Shown: piece after piece, positions 1,522 to 38,904 of the stretch
Position numbering within the stretch: the first letter of the stretch is position 1
How the letters are laid out: every line of letters begins with the position of its first letter
Source of the DNA: an uncultured Candidatus Saccharibacteria bacterium
Lineage (GTDB): Bacteria > Patescibacteriota > Saccharimonadia > Saccharimonadales > Saccharimonadaceae
Reading direction: 5' to 3'
NCBI GenBank assembly: GCA_964488555.1
Contig: CAZAUF010000002.1
Coordinates: 49,407 to 113,406 of the forward strand
Length of the DNA: 64,000 nucleotides
Notes under the pieces: generated by a model
Database searches by the model: none
Seen by the model: only the letters and a program-made list of their open reading frames with translations
What the model was told of the DNA's origin: nothing
Translations under genes and position numbers: made by a program

Positions 1522-3639
1522 CTACGCCTCGACGTCTTTGATACTAAGGCTCAGACGACCACGCTCGTCGATACCGGTTAGCTTCACTTTGACTTCTTGA
1601 CCTTCGTGCAGCACGTCCTCTACCTTTTCGATACGCTGCTCAGATAGTTTGCTGATATGAACCATACCGTCAATACCCGGCAGGATATTCACGAACGCAC
1701 CGAATTCTTTGATACTGACGACCTTGCCGGTATACGTCTTGCCGACTTCTGGCTCCTCGGTCAAACCACGAATCCATTCGAGCGCAGCTTCGATCTTGGC
1801 AGTATCGGATGCCGCGACAGTGATAAGACCATCGTCTTTGATGTCGACTTCAGCACCAGTTTCTTTGGTGATTTTATTGATAACCTCACCGCCTTTGCCG
1901 ATGACCGCACCGATCTTGTCCGGGTTGATCTTGATCTTTTCGATGCGAGGTGCGTACGGGCTAAGAGTCTGTTTCGGTGCAGCAAGCGTTGTCAGCATGT
2001 GCTTCAGGATGAATTCACGACCTGGCTTTGCCTTTTCGATAGCTTGACGCAAAATCGCGACGGGCAGTCCATGAACCTTCATATCCATCTGCATGGCGGT
2101 GATACCCTTTTCGGTACCCGTGACCTTAAAGTCCATATCTCCTGCAAAATCTTCTGCATCGGCGATATCGCTCAATACATACGGAGTGTCACCATCCATC
2201 ATCAGACCCATAGCGATACCGCTGACAGGTCGTTTGATCGGCACGCCAGCATCCATGAGTGCCAGACAGCTTGCACAAGTTGCTGCCATCGATGTCGAAC
2301 CGTTCTGACTCATGATTTCGGTGACAGAACGAATAGTATACGGGAACTCCTCTTCAGTTGGCAGCACTGGAACCAATGCACGTTCAGCCAAGTAGCCATG
2401 ACCAATCTCGCGTCGTCCTGGACTGCCAAGACGGCGAACTTCACCGACGGTATAGCCAGGTGCGTTGTAGTGGTGCATGTAGCGACGCTCGTAGTCATTC
2501 TGCTCCATAGTGTCAACCATCTGCGCGTAGCTCAGTGGTGCAAGCGTGACGATGTTCATACCTTGCGTCACACCACGCGTAAAAATGCTTGAGCCATGCG
2601 CACGCGGCAATATGCCGACTTCAGATGAAAGTGGGCGAATTTCGTCGAGTTTACGACCATCAGGACGCGTACCGTTCTTGATAATGCCGTGGCGAACATC
2701 TTCATGCAATGCTTTGGTGAACGCCTCGTCATACTCATCACGCAGATCAGCGTACTCTTCCTCGCCGACTTTTTCGGCCATTTCTTCGTGAAACGCCCAG
2801 CGTAGGTTGTTGACCATCTCGTTACGCTCTGGATACGGATGGTGCAGTGCTTCACCCAGTTTGCCATCAGTCCACTCGTTGGCTACCTTCTGAATCTCTT
2901 CGTTAGGCAATACCAATTCGTATTCTTGAGCAGCAGGTGCGATCTTTTCTGCCAGTTCTTTCTGTAGCTGAATGGCTGGCTGGTACTGCTCGTATGCCCA
3001 TGCCAGTCCTTCGGTAATAACATCTTCGGAAACCTCGTTAGCACCCGCCTCTACCATGGTGATACCGCTTTCAATGCCAGCTACCACCAGGTCAAGATCG
3101 CTTGCTTCGCGCTCTTCGGGCGTGAGAAACGCTTTGAATTCACCGTTCACACGACCGACGCGGATACCAGCCACAGGACCGTCAAACGGCGTGCCAGTCA
3201 GCATAAGCGCGCTTGAGGCAGCAATCATCGCGATGCTGTCAGGACGGAAATTCGGATCCATCGACAGCACGCTCGCGACCACCTGTACTTCCTGTCGGTA
3301 GCCTTTTGGAAACAGTGGGCGAATTGGACGATCAATCAAACGACCGATCAGGATAGCTTCGTCACTCGGGCGACCCTCGCGCTTAATAAACCGACTGCCG
3401 CTGATTTTGCCAGCTGCATAAAATTTTTCCTCATAGTCGATCGACAGCGGAAAATAATCTAGCTGTATGGGTCGGCTGCCGACCATAGCCGTGCCAAGCA
3501 CGACAGTATCACCGTACTTGACCAGCACGCTCGCTGTCGTACGAAAGCCGACGCGATTGACCTCAAGTGTCAAAGTTTTACCGGCAAGTTCAGTACTAAC
3601 GCTAATAATCTCCTTGCCGTTAGGATTGATTGTAGACAT
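1522..3639 (-). CDS. pnp: polyribonucleotide nucleotidyltransferase (PNPase)
   Basis: Two RNase PH-like domains followed by KH (GKGGEVINKI) and S1 (GKVVSIKEFGAFV). Start moved to the ATG at 3639, which is preceded by GGAAGGAG. Confidence 0.95.
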   Translation of the reverse strand: MSTINPNGKEIISVSTELAGKTLTLEVNRVGFRTTASVLVKYGDTVVLGTAMVGSRPIQLDYFPLSIDYEEKFYAAGKISGSRFIKREGRPSDEAILIGRLIDRPIRPLFPKGYRQEVQVVASVLSMDPNFRPDSIAMIAASSALMLTGTPFDGPVAGIRVGRVNGEFKAFLTPEEREASDLDLVVAGIESGITMVEAGANEVSEDVITEGLAWAYEQYQPAIQLQKELAEKIAPAAQEYELVLPNEEIQKVANEWTDGKLGEALHHPYPERNEMVNNLRWAFHEEMAEKVGEEEYADLRDEYDEAFTKALHEDVRHGIIKNGTRPDGRKLDEIRPLSSEVGILPRAHGSSIFTRGVTQGMNIVTLAPLSYAQMVDTMEQNDYERRYMHHYNAPGYTVGEVRRLGSPGRREIGHGYLAERALVPVLPTEEEFPYTIRSVTEIMSQNGSTSMAATCASCLALMDAGVPIKRPVSGIAMGLMMDGDTPYVLSDIADAEDFAGDMDFKVTGTEKGITAMQMDMKVHGLPVAILRQAIEKAKPGREFILKHMLTTLAAPKQTLSPYAPRIEKIKINPDKIGAVIGKGGEVINKITKETGAEVDIKDDGLITVAASDTAKIEAALEWIRGLTEEPEVGKTYTGKVVSIKEFGAFVNILPGIDGMVHISKLSEQRIEKVEDVLHEGQEVKVKLTGIDERGRLSLSIKDVEA

Positions 3640-5017: not shown

Positions 5018-6402
5018 CGCCAACTCGGCAGCCACATATGCTGCGCAATATCATTGGGCAACATCGGCCAACCATAGCTAAGCGGTAAGAAATACAAGAA
5101 GCCGAGCACAATCACTGCTACTATCATCCAATACGTTTGAACCGCTGCTTTACGCCCATATTTCTGGCTTTGCCAGTCAAAAAGTAGTGCCAACATGACA
5201 CAGGTAGCAAGTATGCTAAACAGCAATGCGAACAGATAGTGATACAGAAACATCGGTCGCATGATAAACGTAAATGGTACGAAATTGAGTGCATATCCGG
5301 TCAGCAAAAATGCTACAAGTTTGCGATGCCTGCCCAACCACACAGGACGAGCTAGCCACACAACAAGTGCCGTCACTACACCAACTGCGGACAACCACCA
5401 TACCGCCGGATTACCTAGGAAATAAATATTTCCCTGCTTACCACTCTCGAGTATGTCACCTTGCCAGTAGTAGACGGGTCGGATCTCCAGCGGCCATGTA
5501 TACCACTTCGATGCATAGGGATGCTCAGTATCATTGAGTGAACTCTGTGCGTTATACATTTGACTGTTCAGTTCGACAAACTTATCCCAAAACGACATTT
5601 TCACCGCAGGATCGTACTGCGGACTACCCACTAGCGTTGACTGGAATTTATCCGACATAAACGCGTCACCCTCGCCACTATGCGTCAATAGCGCGAAATT
5701 CACGGCGAAGCTGCCGATATAGATTGTCGCCATAATCGCAATGACTGTCACAGCTTCACCTACCAAGCGTATCCAGTTTTGTCGACGCAACAAGCCGTCA
5801 ACCGCCCATGCGATTGCCAGCAATCCAGCAATGGCCAGTCCCGTCCATTTGGTAGATACGAGCACACCAAGCAGCACGGCGGTCACAATAACCCATACCC
5901 AACGCCATACACCCTTGCTGTTTCTGAGTTTCAAATAGCTACTGAGTGCTCCCATACCCGACAGAAGCAATAGACTATCCATCAGGACAAACCGAGACTC
6001 AACGAGCAGCGCATTGTCGAGCAAGACAAGTAACGCACCGAACGTGGCGATGCGTCGTCCCAGTCCGAACTGACGTATGATGACATACATCAGTGGTACG
6101 AGTGCTGCACCGGCGAGAGCCGGTAACAAACGTAATATGATGCCGCCTGGGTCTCCAGCAGCTACCTGCTCAGGCGTCAGACCCGTTAGTGCGCCAACAC
6201 CAGCAAAAAGCAGCTTGATAAGTGGCGGATGAATATCGAAAAAAAACTGACCGCTCAAATAACTAGCCGCGAAATCACGAAAATATACTTCGTCAAAGAC
6301 AAGAGACTGCGGCCACCCTATCTGCCAAAAGCGCGTCAACAGGGCAAGTCCTGACAGTATCCATAGTTCCGGATACCGAAACAACCGGCGGTATAGTTTC
6401 AT
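5014..6402 (-). CDS. PMT-family (GT39-like) phospholipid-carrier-dependent glycosyltransferase
   Basis: 462 aa, polytopic. N-terminal loop motif FDEVYF.. and the overall architecture match dolichyl-phosphate-mannose protein mannosyltransferase-like enzymes. Confidence 0.75.
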   Translation of the reverse strand: MKLYRRLFRYPELWILSGLALLTRFWQIGWPQSLVFDEVYFRDFAASYLSGQFFFDIHPPLIKLLFAGVGALTGLTPEQVAAGDPGGIILRLLPALAGAALVPLMYVIIRQFGLGRRIATFGALLVLLDNALLVESRFVLMDSLLLLSGMGALSSYLKLRNSKGVWRWVWVIVTAVLLGVLVSTKWTGLAIAGLLAIAWAVDGLLRRQNWIRLVGEAVTVIAIMATIYIGSFAVNFALLTHSGEGDAFMSDKFQSTLVGSPQYDPAVKMSFWDKFVELNSQMYNAQSSLNDTEHPYASKWYTWPLEIRPVYYWQGDILESGKQGNIYFLGNPAVWWLSAVGVVTALVVWLARPVWLGRHRKLVAFLLTGYALNFVPFTFIMRPMFLYHYLFALLFSILATCVMLALLFDWQSQKYGRKAAVQTYWMIVAVIVLGFLYFLPLSYGWPMLPNDIAQHMWLPSWR

Positions 6403-6413
6403 ATACTCAGTTT

Positions 6414-6444
6414 AGCAAAATAAAAGAGCCCCGTTGTCCGGGGC
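6414..6444 (-). terminator. rho-independent terminator downstream of rpsO
   Basis: GCCCCG/CGGGGC stem (6428-6433 / 6439-6444) followed on the minus strand by TCTTTTATTTT. Confidence 0.6.
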
Positions 6445-6449
6445 GGCAT

Positions 6450-6716
6450 TTATTTCCTGAGTCCTAGGTGCGTAATCAGTGCCTTGTATCCAGCGAAATC
6501 TTTTCGCTCCAGATAGCTCAGCAGTCGCTTGCGACGACCGACCATCTGTATCAGACCGCGACGGGCCTTGTGGTCATGCTTGTGCACACGAAGGTGCTCA
6601 GTGATTTCGGTGATGCGAGCTGTCAAAATAGAAACCTGAACTTCGGCACTGCCGACGTCTTGTTTGCTCTTCTGAACCGCCGCGATAGCTTTGGCTTTAT
6701 TCTCTGCTGTAATCAT
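6450..6716 (-). CDS. rpsO: 30S ribosomal protein S15
   Basis: 88 aa with ...LTARITEITEHLRVHKHDHKARRGL... Confidence 0.95.
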   Translation of the reverse strand: MITAENKAKAIAAVQKSKQDVGSAEVQVSILTARITEITEHLRVHKHDHKARRGLIQMVGRRKRLLSYLERKDFAGYKALITHLGLRK

Positions 6717-6771
6717 TAAGTACGTATTGTAGCAACTTTTTCCGTAAGTTGCAAGGGGTGAAGTTTACTTT

Positions 6772-7440
6772 CTAATCCGTTATGCCGAATGCCGCGAGCG
6801 TCTGAGCGTTTTCGACATGCCAATCAGCGATGGCTGTTCGCCGCAGCTGAGTACAGTAAGCTTCCGTACCCAGTGCTTTACCGATATCAATCGCCAGGCT
6901 ACGAATATAGGTGCCGCTACTCACGTGTGTGCGAATCTTGAGCTCAGGATAGCTATAATCAACGATATCCAAGCTATGAATCGTCACTGTTCGCTCCGGC
7001 ATTTCGACCTCTTTGCCCGCCCGTGCCAGATCATATGCCCGTCTGCCATTGATCTTGATCGCGCTATGAGCTGGAGGTGTCTGCTTAATCTCCCCGGTAA
7101 ACATGCCTAGCACATCCTCGACAGTACTCAAGGACGGACCTTGAGCACCGGGAGGCGTAGTGTCGGTGATCTCGCCTTCCGGATCACCAGTGGTGCTGGT
7201 TTGCCCTAGGCGAAACGTCGCTTCGTAGACTTTGTCATGCTTCATGTATTCACCGGCGTGCTTGCACTCGCTACCGACGCACAGTATCAGTAGCCCCGTG
7301 GCAAACGGATCCAGCGTCCCGCAATGTCCTACCTTCGTCTTCTTGCCGTTCTGCTCGCTCAATACTCGTCGAACGCGCGCCACCACGCCAAAACTGGTCA
7401 TCCCAGCAGGTTTATCAATCAAAAGGATCCCATCTGTCAT
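6772..7440 (-). CDS. truB: tRNA pseudouridine(55) synthase
   Basis: GILLIDKPAGMTSF and GHCGTLDPFATGLL motifs. Confidence 0.93.
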   Translation of the reverse strand: MTDGILLIDKPAGMTSFGVVARVRRVLSEQNGKKTKVGHCGTLDPFATGLLILCVGSECKHAGEYMKHDKVYEATFRLGQTSTTGDPEGEITDTTPPGAQGPSLSTVEDVLGMFTGEIKQTPPAHSAIKINGRRAYDLARAGKEVEMPERTVTIHSLDIVDYSYPELKIRTHVSSGTYIRSLAIDIGKALGTEAYCTQLRRTAIADWHVENAQTLAAFGITD

Positions 7441-7460
7441 CCTTCCAGTATACTAGAGGT

Positions 7461-8144
7461 ATGCAAAAGATACTTTTCGGCATATTCGCCCACCCAGATG
7501 ACGAGGCATTCGGTCCTGTCGCGACACTGGTAAAAGAGATTGAGAGTGGCACGGAACTACACCTCATCACCCTGACCGCTGGCGAAAACGGCACTAACCC
7601 CGATAACCTGCCTAACCTCGGTGAAGTAAGGCTGCAGGAGTGGCAAGCAGCAGGCAAGCTCATCGGCGCGTCATCTATGACACATCTGGGGTATATAGAT
7701 GGTACGCTCAATAATCTCAACCATCTGGAAATCGCGATCAAAGTCGCAGAAATCGTCAATGACACGGTGGCGGGTCGTGAAGACATAGAAATCGAATTCA
7801 TGAGCTTAGACCTCAACGGCTACACCGGTCATATAGATCACATCGTCGCCAGCCGCAGCGCGTGTCTGGCGTTTTACCGACTGCGTGACACCGGACTGCT
7901 GATGAAGCGCGTCCGACTCGCCTGCCTAACGCGTGAGGAAGTCCCTGATGTCAACACCGGCTTTGTCTACATGGAACCGGGCAAAACACTCGACGAAATT
8001 GATGAAACTATCGATGGACGTGAATACACCGAGAAAATCCACGAAATCATGCGTTGTCACCACACCCAGCGCAACGATTACGAAACTGTCATCAAATATA
8101 AGGGCAAAAATCTCGGCATTGATCACTTTGTAACTCGAGACTAA
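7461..8144 (+). CDS. PIG-L/LmbE-family deacetylase
   Basis: N-terminal FAHPDDEAFG motif. Confidence 0.75.
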   Translation: MQKILFGIFAHPDDEAFGPVATLVKEIESGTELHLITLTAGENGTNPDNLPNLGEVRLQEWQAAGKLIGASSMTHLGYIDGTLNNLNHLEIAIKVAEIVNDTVAGREDIEIEFMSLDLNGYTGHIDHIVASRSACLAFYRLRDTGLLMKRVRLACLTREEVPDVNTGFVYMEPGKTLDEIDETIDGREYTEKIHEIMRCHHTQRNDYETVIKYKGKNLGIDHFVTRD

Positions 8145-33435: not shown

Positions 33436-34245
33436 TCACTCGCCGAGTTGCAATAGTGCCAGGCTCATCGCCATGACTGCCATGCCAGCCACTGTGCCGT
33501 AAATCGCCTGGTGCGTCGATGTAGAGTATCTGCGTGCTGCCGGGAGCAACTCGTCCAAACTGATAAACACCATCATGCCGGCTACCATGGCAAATAACGT
33601 TCCGATTAGGCCCTCCGGCAGGACAGCTATCAGTGTAATGTAACCTATCAGCGCACCTGCAGGTTCCGCGAGTCCGGCAACAGCCGTGTACATAAACGCC
33701 TTTTTGCGGCTCCTCGTCGCGGCATATACCGGTGCTGCCACCGCGATACCTTCAGGGATATTATGAATGGCAATTGCCACGGCAAGCATGATACCCAGCT
33801 GCGGATCTTGCATCGCACCTATAAACGTCACCAGTCCTTCAGGAAGGTTATGCATACCAATCGCGATCGCGACCAGTATGCCGCTCCGCATGAGCCGCTT
33901 TGTCTCTGTTTTTGTCAGACCATCGTTCGGCTCGTTTTCTCTGCCTTCGCGCTTGCTGGGGTTAACAGCCCTCGGCAATAATCGATCGATGATTGCCACC
34001 ACAACCATGCCAGCAAAAAACGCCCCGAGTGTCACCGCAAATGCAAAGTCTCCATACTCGGACACGATAGACGCTTGAGCTGCGGGAAGCATCTCGACAA
34101 ACGACACGAGCAACATAGCACCCGCTGCAAATCCAAGTGCCATAGCAAGCACATGTCGCCGGATCATGCCCTTGTGCATGGCAAGCAAGCCGCCTATGAG
34201 TGTCGAAAGTCCCGCCAGTAGTGTCAGTATCAGCGCGAAAAGCAT
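33436..34245 (-). CDS. zupT: ZIP-family metal transporter
   Basis: Polytopic, with HNLPEG and HNIPEG motifs. Confidence 0.85.
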   Translation of the reverse strand: MLFALILTLLAGLSTLIGGLLAMHKGMIRRHVLAMALGFAAGAMLLVSFVEMLPAAQASIVSEYGDFAFAVTLGAFFAGMVVVAIIDRLLPRAVNPSKREGRENEPNDGLTKTETKRLMRSGILVAIAIGMHNLPEGLVTFIGAMQDPQLGIMLAVAIAIHNIPEGIAVAAPVYAATRSRKKAFMYTAVAGLAEPAGALIGYITLIAVLPEGLIGTLFAMVAGMMVFISLDELLPAARRYSTSTHQAIYGTVAGMAVMAMSLALLQLGE

Positions 34246-34257
34246 GGTGTTACACCT

Positions 34258-34758
34258 TTATTTCTGGAGTCGCTCTTCCGGCTCGACGACAGCACCAAAA
34301 TGCTTGTCGTGCAGTTTAAACGATACATCCTCGCCAACGTACTCAACATATGCATTCAGCTCGTTCGCGAGACCCTTGGTGTCAAAAGCAATGTCAGTGT
34401 GCTTTGCAAGAAAACGAGACAGTGGCAATGCGGTTACGAAAAACGCACAGTCCAGACCCTCTTCGTATTCTCTACCCGGTTTTGGCTGGAGAAGTTCGAT
34501 GTACGGAATATTCCAATGATCAGTCTTGAGCGGCGGATCGACCGCCAGGATACTCACCAAACGTCCGTTTACTTCGCGTTCACTCAATACCTTTGCCGAC
34601 TGAGCCAGTTTTTGCTTCACTTCTTCGTAGCGTTCATTACTGTTTACTTCGTAAGCCAGCGTGTCGCACTGTGTCAGCTCATCTCTATTGATAGAGAGTT
34701 TATCCAATAGACCCTCTGCCTTCGACATAAACTCGCGATAATCTCCCAAAGTCTCCAT
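34258..34758 (-). CDS. YecM-like VOC-superfamily protein
   Basis: The pattern ...EREVNGRLVSILAV...HWNIPYIELLQPKPGREYEEG... resembles my recollection of E. coli YecM. Confidence 0.45.
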   Translation of the reverse strand: METLGDYREFMSKAEGLLDKLSINRDELTQCDTLAYEVNSNERYEEVKQKLAQSAKVLSEREVNGRLVSILAVDPPLKTDHWNIPYIELLQPKPGREYEEGLDCAFFVTALPLSRFLAKHTDIAFDTKGLANELNAYVEYVGEDVSFKLHDKHFGAVVEPEERLQK

Positions 34759-34908: not shown

Positions 34909-35895
34909 CTAGTCCTTCTTCGCGCCGTTTACTTCGTAACTGGTATTTGTCGCCTCAAAGAAATTCACGAGTTCAAGCGTATCGTTTGCCGTCGCCATCC
35001 ATTTGGCTGGGTTGCTGACGTTGTAGTGCGCATCAAAACCGAGCTCTTCTAGGCGTCGATCCGCCAAGTACTTCACATACTGGTTGATGTAGTCCGCGTT
35101 CAGACCCAAGATACCGTTTGGCAGCAGATCCTTGTTGTACTGCTCCTCCATTTCCACACCGTCGAGAATCATCTGCTTGATTTCGGCAGCAAACTCTTCA
35201 GTCTGCAGGTCTTCGTTTTCCTCAAGTACCGTTAGGATGAGATTGATACCAAATTTTAGGTGCAGTGATTCATCACGAACCACCCAGTTGATAAGGTATG
35301 CGAAATTACGCAGCAGGTTGCGCTGGCGGAAGCTCAGTGCCACCATGAAACCGCTGTAGAACCAGATACCTTCGAGGATGATGTTGTAAGCGACCAGGTT
35401 GCGAATGAAGTCCTTCTTGCCTTCGGTCGTCGTGATGTCCAGCGTGTCTTCGGTCATACGCTTGATAAACTTCGTCTCGAACTCTTCCTTGCGTGCCATT
35501 GATTCCACTTCCACGTGCGCAGCGTACGACGCCTCGCGGTCGATTGGAAATGTTTCGAGCACGTACTCAAATGCCATGCAGTGATTGGCTTCTTCCCACA
35601 TCTGCTTAGCGAGGTACAGGTGCGCCTCTGCCGCGTTGACGTATGGGTAAACACCGAAAGCCAGTGCCTTGTTCACGAGCAATTCATTCGGGTTGAAGTA
35701 GCTCATCAGGAACGTCACTGCGTGGCGTTCCTCGTCACTCATTTTTTTCCAGTCCGCCAGGTCTTGGCCGAGCTGGATTTCGTTTGGAAACCACGTGTTG
35801 GCGACCGCTTGATTGTAGAGGTCGTATGCCCACTGGTATTTAACTGGTTTGAGAAGTAATCCGTCTTGGATACCTGTTCCGAGAATGCCTGCCAT
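34909..35895 (-). CDS. nrdB: ribonucleotide reductase small subunit, class Ic-like ligand set
   Basis: Metal-site motifs are NPNELLV, EEANHCMAF, ILEGIWFYSGF and RDESLH. Glu replaces the first Asp, and Phe sits at the radical-Tyr position (H+4). Confidence 0.9.
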   Translation of the reverse strand: MAGILGTGIQDGLLLKPVKYQWAYDLYNQAVANTWFPNEIQLGQDLADWKKMSDEERHAVTFLMSYFNPNELLVNKALAFGVYPYVNAAEAHLYLAKQMWEEANHCMAFEYVLETFPIDREASYAAHVEVESMARKEEFETKFIKRMTEDTLDITTTEGKKDFIRNLVAYNIILEGIWFYSGFMVALSFRQRNLLRNFAYLINWVVRDESLHLKFGINLILTVLEENEDLQTEEFAAEIKQMILDGVEMEEQYNKDLLPNGILGLNADYINQYVKYLADRRLEELGFDAHYNVSNPAKWMATANDTLELVNFFEATNTSYEVNGAKKD

Positions 35896-35956: not shown

Positions 35957-36130
35957 TTACTCGCAACCGTCGCAAATCGTCAGCATGGCTGGATCAAGCG
36001 GTGCAGCGATAGAACCGCTTTTTTGCGCTTCTTCCTGTGCCTGCTCCTGCGCAGCTTTCATAGCCTTGTCGATCGCGTCCAATTTCTCTTGCAGAGTCAT
36101 GTTGTCGTCGATGATTTGTGATGCGTTCAT
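35957..36130 (-). CDS. unannotated 57-aa ORF between nrdA and nrdB ending in CDGCE
   Basis: Read by hand from the sequence because it is below the ORF-track cutoff: MNASQIIDDNMTLQEKLDAIDKAMKAAQEQAQEEAQKSGSIAAPLDPAMLTICDGCE. AAGGGG lies 11 nt upstream of the ATG. Confidence 0.45.
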   Translation of the reverse strand: MNASQIIDDNMTLQEKLDAIDKAMKAAQEQAQEEAQKSGSIAAPLDPAMLTICDGCE

Positions 36131-36244
36131 AGTATTATTTTCCCCTTATACCCTTTTCTTTTCAGTTATGTTTTTCATGTGTTCTTTTCGTTCAGAGCGT
36201 ACCCATAGGCTATGTCTCCACCCTTACATCCCATGAAACAGGTT

Positions 36245-38653
36245 TCATGGGGACCCCGTTGCTTGTTTTTTAGCAAATCCGAACCCAGTCTTACGCGGAC
36301 CGCCGCCCGCCAGTGCCTCGGCTTTGTTTACTTTCACTGTACTTTGCTCATTGGTATGGCGCGGTTTGACGTGCAGATAGTAAGTCGTTTTGAGACCCTT
36401 TTTCCAGGCGGCCGCGTAAATCTTTTCGTACTCGTCGATGTCTCGTGTCTCCAGATACATATTGCGGCTGATCGCTTGGTCGACCCACTTTTGCGCGCGG
36501 GCGGCAACTTCTATAAATGCGTACGGGCTTAGCTGGAAACTCGTCTTGTATACATCTTTAATGTTCTGCGGAATCGCTTCGATCTGCTGGATATCGCCCT
36601 GGTAGCGCAAGACTTCGTCTTTTACCTGCTCCCAGAGACCCAGTCGCTTCAAGTCGTTGATCATATTCACATTGACCTCGAGGAACTTGCCGTTCAGTGT
36701 GGCGCGGCTAAATATCTGGGCAAATTGCGGATCGATGCCTGGCGTCGTACCACTGACATGCGCATTGTTTGCAGTCGGTGCGATAGCCATCAGAGTCGCG
36801 TTGCGCATGCCTTTTTTCACCTTGGCGCGCAGCTTTTCCCAGTCCAGACGTTTCTTGCGTGTGATATCGAGTTTGATCTTGCGATCAAGCTCTAGTTGAT
36901 CGAGCGTGTCGATCGGCAAGATGCCCTTGCTCCAACCACTGCCCTTGAATGTCGGGTAGCTTCCGCGCTCCTTAGCAAGATCCGCACTGGCATCAATGGC
37001 GTGGTAGCTGATAAATTCAGTCAACTGATCCATCAAATCGTACGCCTCTTCGGACTCATAGCTATAACCAAGCTTTTCGATGACATCGGTAAAGCCCATG
37101 ATACCAAGACCCACGGCGCGGTTTTGCTGATTGCTGTGCATCGCCTGTGGAATCGGCGTGTTGGTCAGATCAACCAGGTTATCGAGCTGGCGGATCGATA
37201 CGCGGACAGCACGCTCCAGACGATCCCAGTCCCATGTCTTGTCCTCGCGCAAGTGAACCGACAAGTTGATGCTCGAGAGGTTACAGACAGCCGTGTTGTC
37301 TTTGTCTTGTGGCAGCGTGATTTCCGTACACAGATTACTGTGGTGAATCGTGCCGGTATTATTGTTGAGCGCGCGCACATTCATAGTGTCTTTCCAGGTG
37401 AGCCATGGATGGCTGGTCGCCTGAAGGATAGTCAGAATTTGACGGTATTGCTCACGAGCGTTCACGACGGCAAAGTCTCGCATTTTGCCTGCCTTGGCCA
37501 GCTTGACGTATTCGTTGTAACGCTTGGCAAACGCATCACCATACAGTTCGATCAAATCAGCTGTCTCGGCCGGATCAAACAAATACCAATCCTGCTCCTT
37601 CTGCACGCGACGCATAAACTCATCACTCAGGATGACCGCCGTGTTGGCAATTCGCGTACGAAGGTATGGGTCACCAGAGTTTTGCTTGAGGTCCAAAAAC
37701 TGTGGGAAATTCAGGTGCCAGTTTTCCATGAAGACAGCGGCCGCGCCTTGCTTTTTGCCCTTGCGGCTGACCGCGAACAGTGCCGTGTCGATCATCTTGA
37801 TAAATGGAATCGGACCGGTTGATTCGCTATTGGTCGTCTTGACCGGACTGCCAGCAGCACGAAGTTTGGTGATGCCGATACCGATACCGCCGGTACCCTT
37901 GGCAATCCACATAGTGTCACGCACGCCGCGTGCAATCGCTTCCATGTCATCCTCTATGTCAAACAAGAAACAGTTGCTCAGCTGTGGGAATGAACCGCCA
38001 GCGTTGATACGAGTCGAACCTGCCGGGTTGGCGTCGAGCTTGCTTATGTACTCGTAAAACTCCAACGCCGTAGCGGTTGGGTCCTTTTCGAGAAGGCTCA
38101 GCCCCATGGCGATACGCATAGCAGTAAACTGCGGAACTTCGATGGAATCACCGCTGTTTTGGCGCAAACTATAGCGGTTGCGGCTGGTGATAACGCCGAG
38201 ATAACGCATCAGACCGTCCCGCGACGGGTCCAGTGCTGCCGCCAGCTTCTTGAGATCAAATGTCTTGCTGGTCATGCGCTTGTCGAGCAGACCCAGAGCG
38301 ATACCATTTTTCAGATACTCTGGGAACTTTTTGGCGTGCAACGCCTTTAGCTCTTCTTGGCTTGAGTACGCACCTAGAACCTTCTTATATATATTCTTTA
38401 GCAGCAGATTTGCCGCGATCTTATCAAAGTCAGGATCGTCTTTGACGTTTTGCAGCGCGGTGTGTATCAGTGCTTCGTCCAACTGCTCGGTGGTGATACC
38501 GTCAAACAGCGTCAGTTGCAGCTCGGTCGCAACCTGTACGACTTTGCTAATCTGGTCAGGTAGCCCCTCACTGGCTTCGACCAGGGCGAGATTGATTTTG
38601 TTGGCGTCGAATGGTTCGCGGGTGCCATCGCGTTTAACCACATTGATGCTCAT
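36245..38653 (-). CDS. nrdA: ribonucleoside-diphosphate reductase large subunit
   Basis: N-terminal ATP-cone (VVKRDGTREPFD), SNCFL, NLCTEI and AVCNLSSINL. No Cys occurs in the last ~130 residues. Confidence 0.95.
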   Translation of the reverse strand: MSINVVKRDGTREPFDANKINLALVEASEGLPDQISKVVQVATELQLTLFDGITTEQLDEALIHTALQNVKDDPDFDKIAANLLLKNIYKKVLGAYSSQEELKALHAKKFPEYLKNGIALGLLDKRMTSKTFDLKKLAAALDPSRDGLMRYLGVITSRNRYSLRQNSGDSIEVPQFTAMRIAMGLSLLEKDPTATALEFYEYISKLDANPAGSTRINAGGSFPQLSNCFLFDIEDDMEAIARGVRDTMWIAKGTGGIGIGITKLRAAGSPVKTTNSESTGPIPFIKMIDTALFAVSRKGKKQGAAAVFMENWHLNFPQFLDLKQNSGDPYLRTRIANTAVILSDEFMRRVQKEQDWYLFDPAETADLIELYGDAFAKRYNEYVKLAKAGKMRDFAVVNAREQYRQILTILQATSHPWLTWKDTMNVRALNNNTGTIHHSNLCTEITLPQDKDNTAVCNLSSINLSVHLREDKTWDWDRLERAVRVSIRQLDNLVDLTNTPIPQAMHSNQQNRAVGLGIMGFTDVIEKLGYSYESEEAYDLMDQLTEFISYHAIDASADLAKERGSYPTFKGSGWSKGILPIDTLDQLELDRKIKLDITRKKRLDWEKLRAKVKKGMRNATLMAIAPTANNAHVSGTTPGIDPQFAQIFSRATLNGKFLEVNVNMINDLKRLGLWEQVKDEVLRYQGDIQQIEAIPQNIKDVYKTSFQLSPYAFIEVAARAQKWVDQAISRNMYLETRDIDEYEKIYAAAWKKGLKTTYYLHVKPRHTNEQSTVKVNKAEALAGGGPRKTGFGFAKKQATGSP

Positions 38654-38814: not shown

Positions 38815-38862
38815 ACTACATATGTAGTGTCTATATAGCACTATAGACCCTATATATGTGGT
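38815..38862. promoter_or_regulatory. NrdR-box-like tandem palindromes upstream of nrdA
   Basis: ACTACATATGTAGTGT (38815-38830) and ACCCTATATATGTGGT (38847-38862). Each matches ACACTATATATAGTGT at 12/16, and their centres are 32 bp apart. Confidence 0.5.
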
Positions 38863-38904
38863 TTTCAAGCATTTTGCCTGTGTTTTTTTCACCACAAGCA
38901 TAAT

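Follow-up and report, generated by a model that had tools for sequence, protein, structure and literature searches.

Most class I ribonucleotide reductases (RNRs) end in a C-terminal CXXC motif, according to a review of RNR extensions (PMC9669993), and the cysteine pair of this tail relays electrons from a redoxin to the disulfide of the active site (PMC9669993; PMC6382339). Pseudomonas aeruginosa has a split class II RNR, whose second chain, NrdJb, supplies NrdJa with thiol–disulfide exchange and binds near the NrdJa C-terminus (PMC4520616), and in the Aeromonas phage Aeh1, the class Ia large subunit is made as two polypeptides, NrdA-a and NrdA-b, whose oppositely charged tails have been proposed to aid assembly (PMC3045599). 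Here, we analyzed a stretch of 64,000 nt from an uncultured Candidatus Saccharibacteria bacterium (hereafter the window, to which all coordinates refer unless another locus is named), in which the minus strand carries nrdA, a 57-codon open reading frame (ORF), and nrdB in a head-to-tail arrangement. An initial annotation of this DNA had pointed out the ORF, which ends in CDGCE, and had suggested that it might supply the redox tail of NrdA in trans. The ORF was recovered at 35957–36130 with an identical translation (MNASQIIDDNMTLQEKLDAIDKAMKAAQEQAQEEAQKSGSIAAPLDPAMLTICDGCE, C-terminal ...PAMLTICDGCE), and the suggestion gained support from comparison: the cysteine-poor NrdA, the conservation of the mini-protein, its linkage to nrdAB, the existence of unsplit relatives, and the redoxins found beside phage copies all point to the same function. 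We therefore regard it as likely that this mini-protein is the C-terminal redox-shuttle tail of a class I RNR, detached by an ancient fission in Saccharibacteria and produced as a polypeptide of its own from an nrdA–mini–nrdB operon.

The large subunit encoded upstream of the ORF has the ATP-cone, all-alpha, and barrel domains of the family (Pfam), its nearest PDB entry is 5im3, and it passes the NCBIfam model NF005101, albeit over model positions 1–790 of 822 only. It possesses three cysteines in total, C228, C442, and C457, located in the SNCFL, NLCTEI, and AVCNLS motifs and equivalent to C225, C439, and C462 of the Escherichia coli enzyme (E. coli numbering from PMC3045599). The retention of these catalytic motifs, as initially annotated, is thus borne out, and since the last cysteine lies at position 457, the cysteine-free end of NrdA spans its final 345 residues and not just the 130 or so first reported. 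These three positions are also the sole cysteine columns kept in 122 of 122 aligned NrdA relatives; the next commonest is found in 77 of the 122 and is occupied by a valine in the window. As no further cysteine is conserved, an alternative internal pair, which the initial annotation had named as an observation that would speak against a tail in trans, is not available to NrdA. Tail cysteines are likewise missing from all 120 closest NrdA clusters (82–91% identity). Instead, all 120 of these proteins end in [RK][RK]xGFGFAK, a motif that is also seen in genome loci and that reads RKTGFGFAKK in the window, where the final 23 residues of NrdA include four basic and no acidic residues. We would guess from these features that RKTGFGFAKK may be where the mini-protein docks. 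The residues encoded 3′ of GFGFAKKQ are variable across all relatives.

The mini-protein itself is widely conserved. A word-indexed search returned 91 clusters with 59–100% identity to it, almost all of 57 amino acids (aa), and a profile search over 1.84 billion representatives returned about 125 clusters at the 50% level, nearly all of 42–87 aa; the homologues number more than 200, with lengths of about 42–87 aa. In the profile search, the final profile position coincides with the final residue of the homologues, and 184 of 214 short family sequences end in C-x-x-C-x-stop, the other sequences looking truncated or frameshifted; the one residue between the last cysteine and the stop is always Q or E. 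Across 97 diverse members, whose consensus consists of MxAxxIxxDxMTLEEKLxAIDxAM, a variable stretch, and PxDPADLxxCxGCQ, the cysteines C53 and C56 are invariant, and L13, K16, L17, and I20, as well as D46 and P47, are conserved in at least 90% of sequences. A G-rich Shine–Dalgarno sequence is found at the same distance in most relatives, even though the remaining spacer has diverged. Over 793 pairs, the median ratio of nonsynonymous to synonymous substitution rates (dN/dS) is 0.13, a rough value because dS is near saturation (median 1.6). These patterns indicate that the mini ORF is a genuine gene under purifying selection, and the lack of conservation that, according to the initial annotation, would have undermined the idea is not what we observed. 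Neither the mini-protein nor the 97 members matched a family in Pfam, NCBIfam, or PDB, where weak coiled-coil noise was the only signal. Some public records label homologues “hypothetical protein,” so that the gene, initially called unannotated, is uncharacterized rather than never annotated. Read-through or recoding from nrdA into the mini ORF was also considered and was excluded, as three in-frame stops intervene and the frame relation is 0, 1, or 2 in relatives; given this variation, the frame shared by the two genes in the window is a coincidence.

The ancestry of the mini-protein is suggested by relatives of NrdA in which the tail is still attached. A chimeric query composed of the last 60 NrdA residues followed by the mini-protein retrieved ten NrdA C-terminal fragments with 97–98% query coverage (P0393–P0424), which run from ...GLKTTYYLHMKPRH..KVNKAEALGKRGFAVLRDK through a variable linker of 40–70 residues to ...LPEDPMDALLCEGCQ-stop or close variants. 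The motif found at unsplit C-termini is ...DPxDxxxCxGCQ-stop, and an unsplit NrdA end such as ...DPMDALLCEGCQ-stop displays the same motif as the end of the mini-protein; the P. aeruginosa-type NrdA (5im3, the closest solved relative) ends in ...ACSIDNPDCEACQ-stop. Among these relatives, P0428 is a full-length unsplit NrdA of 864 aa, 58% identical to the NrdA of the window over the core and with cysteines at positions 860 and 863; on its contig, nrdB lies 16 nt 3′ of nrdA and the mini gene is absent, and the same holds for L139. The mini-protein profile reaches the last residue of 11 out of 11 unsplit NrdA sequences (16–26 bits), and the unsplit tails align to the mini-protein with 55–67% identity over 15–23 residues, always anchored at the C-terminus (e.g., HG-PVDPNDALLCDGCQ vs. 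HGFPVPVDPDDALMCEGCQ and ACPVDPQERLQCDSCQ vs. ACPIDPAERALCEACQ), which amounts to homology with bona fide NrdA tails. The break point falls directly after the GF motif: the homologous segment of unsplit NrdA is GKRGFAVLRDK, and the motif persists in tail-less NrdA as GFGFAKK, a version that is more regular. Together, the end-anchored homology and the position of the break argue that the mini-protein is a detached NrdA tail. The mini-protein profile retrieved no NrdA-length fused form from the 1.84 billion representatives, and fused tails match over about 20 residues only; in this set, sequences of other kinds probably stand in for the fused clusters. As for the rest of the protein, 73-aa forms, in which the mini ORF is read with an N-terminal extension (P0049 and P0050, MQPTTRNKPRHKEKKTMNANEII...), are colinear with the linker of P0394 (RDKPKMEE..TLVTASVVEE...) with 31% identity over 68 residues, a weak signal that the former linker may have given rise, in situ, to the helix region.

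In a collection holding one genome per species, tblastn confirmed 349 stretches encoding the mini-protein, and the locus counts given here refer to the best 80 of these 349. Seventy of the 80 are labeled as Saccharibacteria or a subgroup of it and ten carry generic labels or, for one of them, the label Verrucomicrobiia; the nearest locus (95% identity) belongs to a Candidatus Saccharibacteria metagenome-assembled genome. The mini gene is found together with nrdAB in 74 of the 80 loci, under two gene orders: nrdA–mini–nrdB, as in the window (38 loci), and nrdA–nrdB–(PNPOx-like)–mini–pyrG (36 loci). That both orders include nrdAB implies that the mini gene stays linked to it through rearrangement. 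Covalent continuity with the NrdA chain is lacking, with three stops and a 114-nt spacer between the two in the window and a separate gene in 74 of 74 informative loci. Two apparent exceptions, an nrdA–mini fusion (L072) and an nrdA–nrdB fusion (L082), were rejected as artifacts of tblastn alignments extended beyond a stop codon. The six other loci comprise five that end at a contig edge and one, L047, whose flanks hold no RNR genes. In this Saccharibacteria genome, the mini gene (3108–3287) sits amid small ORFs, with neither nrdA nor nrdB in the 3 kb upstream and the 5 kb downstream, and this copy may belong to a prophage. Where the second gene order applies, the PNPOx-like gene between nrdB and the mini gene encodes an FMN-binding split-barrel protein of 132–135 aa (L022 4543–4941 and 35 similar loci); in L016, it is found at 116–523.

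The predicted architecture of the mini-protein also fits a shuttle tail. Based on the family alignment, AlphaFold2 predicts one helix over residues 13–38, with a predicted local distance difference test (pLDDT) score of about 75, and then a tail of low confidence (mean pLDDT of about 50 for residues 39–57 and below 50 for residues 54–57), and such a flexible or disordered segment is expected of an RNR redox tail, as is a CxxC or CxxxxC cysteine pair within the last 10 or so residues (here, C53-D-G-C56-E-stop). One face of the predicted helix displays a hydrophobic stripe made of L13, L17, I20, and M24, and the protein counts 11 acidic and four basic residues, for a net charge of about −7. We propose, on the basis of this model, that the conserved N-terminal helix anchors the mini-protein to NrdA.

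If the mini-protein is indeed the detached tail of NrdA, then turnover would oxidize C228 and C457 of NrdA to a disulfide, upon which the mini-protein would dock through its amphipathic acidic helix (MTLEEKLxAID), perhaps onto the basic RKxGFGFAKK end. The flexible, PxDP-containing tail of about 15 residues could then bring C53-x-x-C56 to the active site, where thiol–disulfide exchange would reduce the disulfide, and the oxidized mini-protein would in turn be re-reduced by a thioredoxin-fold redoxin of the thioredoxin, glutaredoxin, or NrdH type. For yeast Rnr1, Zhang et al. (2007), a paper that PMC6382339 cites on a related point, reportedly found that a protomer is regenerated by the CX2C tail of its neighbor, and tail action in trans is made plausible by this report and by the NrdJb precedent. 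The translation of the mini gene, the docking site, the transfer of electrons, and the purpose of the phage copies described below are all inferred from sequence, genomic context, and precedent.

From the perspective of host–virus relationships, relatives of the mini-protein are encoded by 41 IMG/VR viral contigs (36–75% identity) and by two other phage-like contigs. Their neighbors include RusA, amidase, and exonuclease genes; neither nrdA nor nrdB occurs within the 6-kb flanks of these 43 loci, and a tblastn search of the GenBank phages of INPHARED with the 57-mer gave no match. In 16 of the 43 loci, an NrdH or glutaredoxin gene overlaps the stop codon of the mini gene or lies one gene downstream. 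The redoxins of L113–L120 and L015 carry CVQC and WSGFRP, and against the NrdH model TIGR02194 (cut-off 85.75), that of L113 scores 86.2 bits and that of L015 84.4 bits. In L113–L120 (IMG/VR), the mini gene (about 6001–6171) overlaps the NrdH-like ORF (6165–6410), and in L015 (452–861), a metagenome contig, it overlaps the start of the NrdH-type redoxin gene, an arrangement that looks like a two-gene cassette of tail plus NrdH. A glutaredoxin-like ORF overlaps the mini stop in L123, L124, and L128 and lies one gene downstream in L129–L132; the glutaredoxin-like gene of these other phage groups matches PF00462 with 49.6 bits, its best NCBIfam model being the YruB family. Judging from these gene neighborhoods, the pairing with redoxins constitutes an association with the RNR-specific family of hydrogen donors and hence an independent line of evidence for the detached tail. 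The phage copies, often accompanied by an NrdH or glutaredoxin of their own, would presumably raise the turnover of the host RNR, since a tail that is a free protein can come from another genome. More tentatively, and with somewhat more doubt than confidence, we envision the tail as a diffusible, exchangeable “tail-only” shuttle of a new class, captured by phages, frequently together with NrdH, and letting them drive the host RNR without any subunit of their own. In L111 (6159–6308) and L112 (304–480), a second, divergent mini-like ORF directly follows the first; it ends in ...IPIDPMDELQCDSCQ and has another N-terminal part, so that these phages carry the tail protein duplicated in tandem. In L005, a phage-like contig (SSB, DUF7249, and DUF7022), the mini gene begins with GTG and encodes 55 aa, and it is followed by 13 tRNA genes (6303–7838).

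Several observations weigh against the interpretation of the mini-protein as a detached NrdA tail. We found no thioredoxin or glutaredoxin gene in the 64-kb window and none beside the bacterial operons; nothing in the unsplit linkers clearly corresponds to the conserved N-terminal helix, such that part of the mini-protein may have a further function; the selection estimate is, as noted, a rough one; and the phage copies lacking RNR genes within 6 kb, although compatible with a diffusible shuttle, also fit a general thiol-redox or regulatory role. In line with the latter point, the mini-protein might be a general small thiol–disulfide carrier, serving with NrdH or glutaredoxin several targets rather than NrdA in particular: it is free-standing, it is found without RNR genes nearby in the 41 IMG/VR and two phage-like contigs and in L047, and genes of the glutaredoxin fold are adjacent to it. 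We nonetheless deem this unlikely, because nearly all bacterial loci (74 of 80) keep the mini gene with nrdAB despite rearrangement, because its distribution is complementary to that of tailed NrdA and its end motif is the NrdA tail motif, and because NrdH is itself a redoxin family dedicated to RNR. A regulatory role would make the mini-protein an RNR regulator or inhibitor, that is, a tail mimic competing at the active or docking site, whose phage copies would manipulate the synthesis of deoxynucleoside triphosphates (dNTPs) in the host. A model for this exists in Sml1, an inhibitor from eukaryotes that hinders the regeneration carried out by the C-terminus of R1, and a small, acidic, partly disordered protein encoded in an RNR operon and carried by phages would suit such a role. 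Yet this would leave NrdA without any shuttle, the invariance of the cysteine pair and its exact C-terminal position speak for chemistry over mere binding, and a partnership with NrdH suits an electron chain, so that we consider inhibition very unlikely.

The partner subunit offers a further candidate target. The best PDB match of NrdB is 1syy/4d8f, which we take to be the R2 protein of Chlamydia trachomatis, and in the alignment to 1syy (EEANHCMAF/EEAVHTHTF and NPNE/STAE, NrdB first), a phenylalanine of NrdB aligns with the chlamydial phenylalanine that replaces the radical tyrosine, and a glutamate aligns at the first metal ligand. NrdB thus presents both features of class Ic, and the RNR of the window probably uses a Mn/Fe cofactor, as far as can be told from this alignment. 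On this basis, the mini-protein could serve NrdB by donating electrons or chaperoning metal while the Mn/Fe cofactor is assembled or maintained, with two copies sharing a metal or Fe–S center through four cysteines, by analogy with YfaE, a small ferredoxin encoded after nrdB in E. coli. The location in an RNR operon, downstream of nrdB in half of the loci, the class Ic-like NrdB, the ability of a C-terminal CxxC to bind metal, and a helix that could dimerize are all compatible with such a function. It appears distinctly unlikely, however, in view of the homology between the C-terminal segment and unsplit NrdA tails, whose loci lack the mini gene, the loss by NrdA of its own tail cysteines, and the phages that pair the mini gene with NrdH or glutaredoxin without nrdB; moreover, there are just two cysteines in the mini-protein, and it has no match among ferredoxin or chaperone families. 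Finally, the frame shared with nrdA in the window could suggest a non-functional remnant of an nrdA 3′ end broken by a stop, or a chance ORF. This is scarcely credible: three stops intervene, the frame varies in relatives, the ORF has its own ATG and Shine–Dalgarno sequence with a dN/dS of about 0.13, and it was kept after a move downstream of nrdB and acquired by phages; conservation refutes it. Overall, these comparisons favor the detached redox tail of NrdA as the identity of the mini-protein.

The features of the operon are compiled in the following table. The ribosome-binding site pointed out by the initial annotation was found where expected, whereas the 114-nt gap that it had placed before nrdB actually extends from the nrdA stop to the start of the ORF.

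Features of the nrdA–mini–nrdB unit (positions in the 64,000-nt window)
Feature	Coordinates	Strand	Basis or remark
nrdA, class I RNR large subunit, 802 aa	36245..38653	-	Pfam PF03477, PF00317, PF02867
Span of the three catalytic Cys codons: C228 (37972..37970), C442 (37330..37328), C457 (37285..37283)	37283..37972	-	
RKTGFGFAKK, basic/aromatic motif, NrdA residues 787-796	36266..36295	-	Conserved near the C-terminus
Spacer between nrdA and the mini gene, 114 nt	36131..36244	-	Carries the Shine–Dalgarno sequence AAGGGG
AAGGGG, Shine–Dalgarno sequence, 11 nt 5′ of the mini ATG	36147..36142	-	
Mini-protein gene, 57 codons plus TAA, ATG start	35957..36130	-	Homologues; homology to NrdA tails
Codons 11-25, MTLQEKLDAIDKAMK, predicted start of amphipathic helix	36056..36100	-	Conservation; AlphaFold2
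Codons 44-57, PLDPAMLTICDGCE, predicted flexible reactive tail	35960..36001	-	Invariant Cys; alignment to unsplit tails
C53 codon; C56 codon	35974..35972; 35965..35963	-	
nrdB, small subunit, 328 aa from ATG 35895 (alternative start TTG 35907)	34909..35895	-	Pfam PF00268
Promoter-like site TTGAAA-17-TATAGT, 5′ of nrdA	38840..38868	-	Consensus match only

The promoter-like site upstream of nrdA is the sole one for the nrdA–mini–nrdB unit: on the minus strand, the 114 nt that separate nrdA from the mini gene hold no promoter-like or terminator-like site, and the three genes have no terminator-like site between them. An RNA element in the 114-nt spacer was considered as well and was rejected, as Rfam gave no match and the predicted fold is no better than that of shuffled sequence (z = −0.05). 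A 10-bp inverted repeat, CCCATGAAAC..GTTTCATGGG, encompasses the stop codon of nrdA (36200–36262, minus strand). In the close relatives L020 and L018, GGTGGAGACATAGCCTATG contains the nrdA stop, whereas in the window it falls within the spacer, from which it follows that the extreme 3′ end of nrdA has been shifted by a small indel. Downstream of nrdB are a YecM-like gene (34258–34758) and a Zip-family metal transporter gene (33436–34245), both on the minus strand, and in L016, the mini gene is neighbored by the same Zip gene and by a superoxide dismutase gene; these neighbors possibly reflect a metal or oxidative-stress context for a class Ic RNR.

The C-terminal cysteine pair is treated as integral to class I large subunits, when here a whole lineage, represented by hundreds of species-level genomes, would make this tail separately. 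Such a lineage would provide a tractable system in which to ask how the tail reaches the active site, whether it serves its own or a neighboring protomer, and which redoxin recharges it. The proposed function would also be assigned to a small “hypothetical” protein widespread in Saccharibacteria, episymbionts with reduced genomes, and the annotation of their RNR would be incomplete without it. With regard to viruses, the mini genes of phages, which often come with NrdH, may be auxiliary metabolic genes of a new kind; if this is true, they would represent a new viral route to boost the dNTP supply and a natural demonstration that an RNR tail works fully in trans. More generally, the case suggests that missing catalytic parts can be encoded by small ORFs between the genes of essential operons.

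In the full-text literature that we searched, from which subscription journals are mostly absent such that a prior description is possible, we encountered no relevant description of a split class I tail, of the mini-protein, or of the RNR of Saccharibacteria. Compared with the known class I tails (C754/C759 in E. coli, CX2C in eukaryotes, and the P. aeruginosa type), the mini-protein has in common a cysteine pair in the last five residues, a flexible segment, and an end motif resembling the unsplit ...DPxDxxLCEGCQ-stop and the P. aeruginosa-type ...DCEACQ-stop; it differs from them in being a separate gene, with its own start and Shine–Dalgarno sequence, and in having an additional conserved N-terminal amphipathic helix. 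With NrdH, glutaredoxin, and thioredoxin, it shares its small size, a CxxC dithiol, a genetic association with RNR, and its presence in phages. Thioredoxin-fold redoxins, however, measure about 75–110 aa and bear their CxxC at the N-terminus of helix 1, whereas the mini-protein has no predicted thioredoxin fold, matches none of PF00085, PF00462, and TIGR02194, and is predicted to form a single helix. Most likely, it acts one step downstream of NrdH or glutaredoxin in the electron chain, being encoded beside them in phages and not replacing them. It also differs from the YfaE-type [2Fe-2S] ferredoxin, which has four cluster cysteines and a ferredoxin fold, by its two cysteines and its lack of any family match.

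As for enzymes that are themselves divided, the locus recalls phage Aeh1 by an opposition of charges, the end of NrdA being basic and the N-terminal part of the mini-protein acidic. In Aeh1, however, the insertion of a homing endonuclease splits the barrel between active-site residues, when in the window the core is intact, only the redox tail is detached, and no mobile element is found at the nrdA/mini junction. The similarity goes further with NrdJa/NrdJb, in which, as with NrdA and the mini-protein, the catalytic chain has no C-terminal cysteines and a separately encoded second chain carries them. That system belongs to class II and depends on adenosylcobalamin, whereas the present one is a class I (Ic-like) RNR with an NrdB subunit, whose second chain consists of a helix and a tail, 57 aa in all, has two cysteines, and lacks any recognizable domain. 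By analogy, NrdJa/NrdJb thus appears to be the closest precedent for the detached tail of Saccharibacteria, alike in logic, if not in class or domain content.

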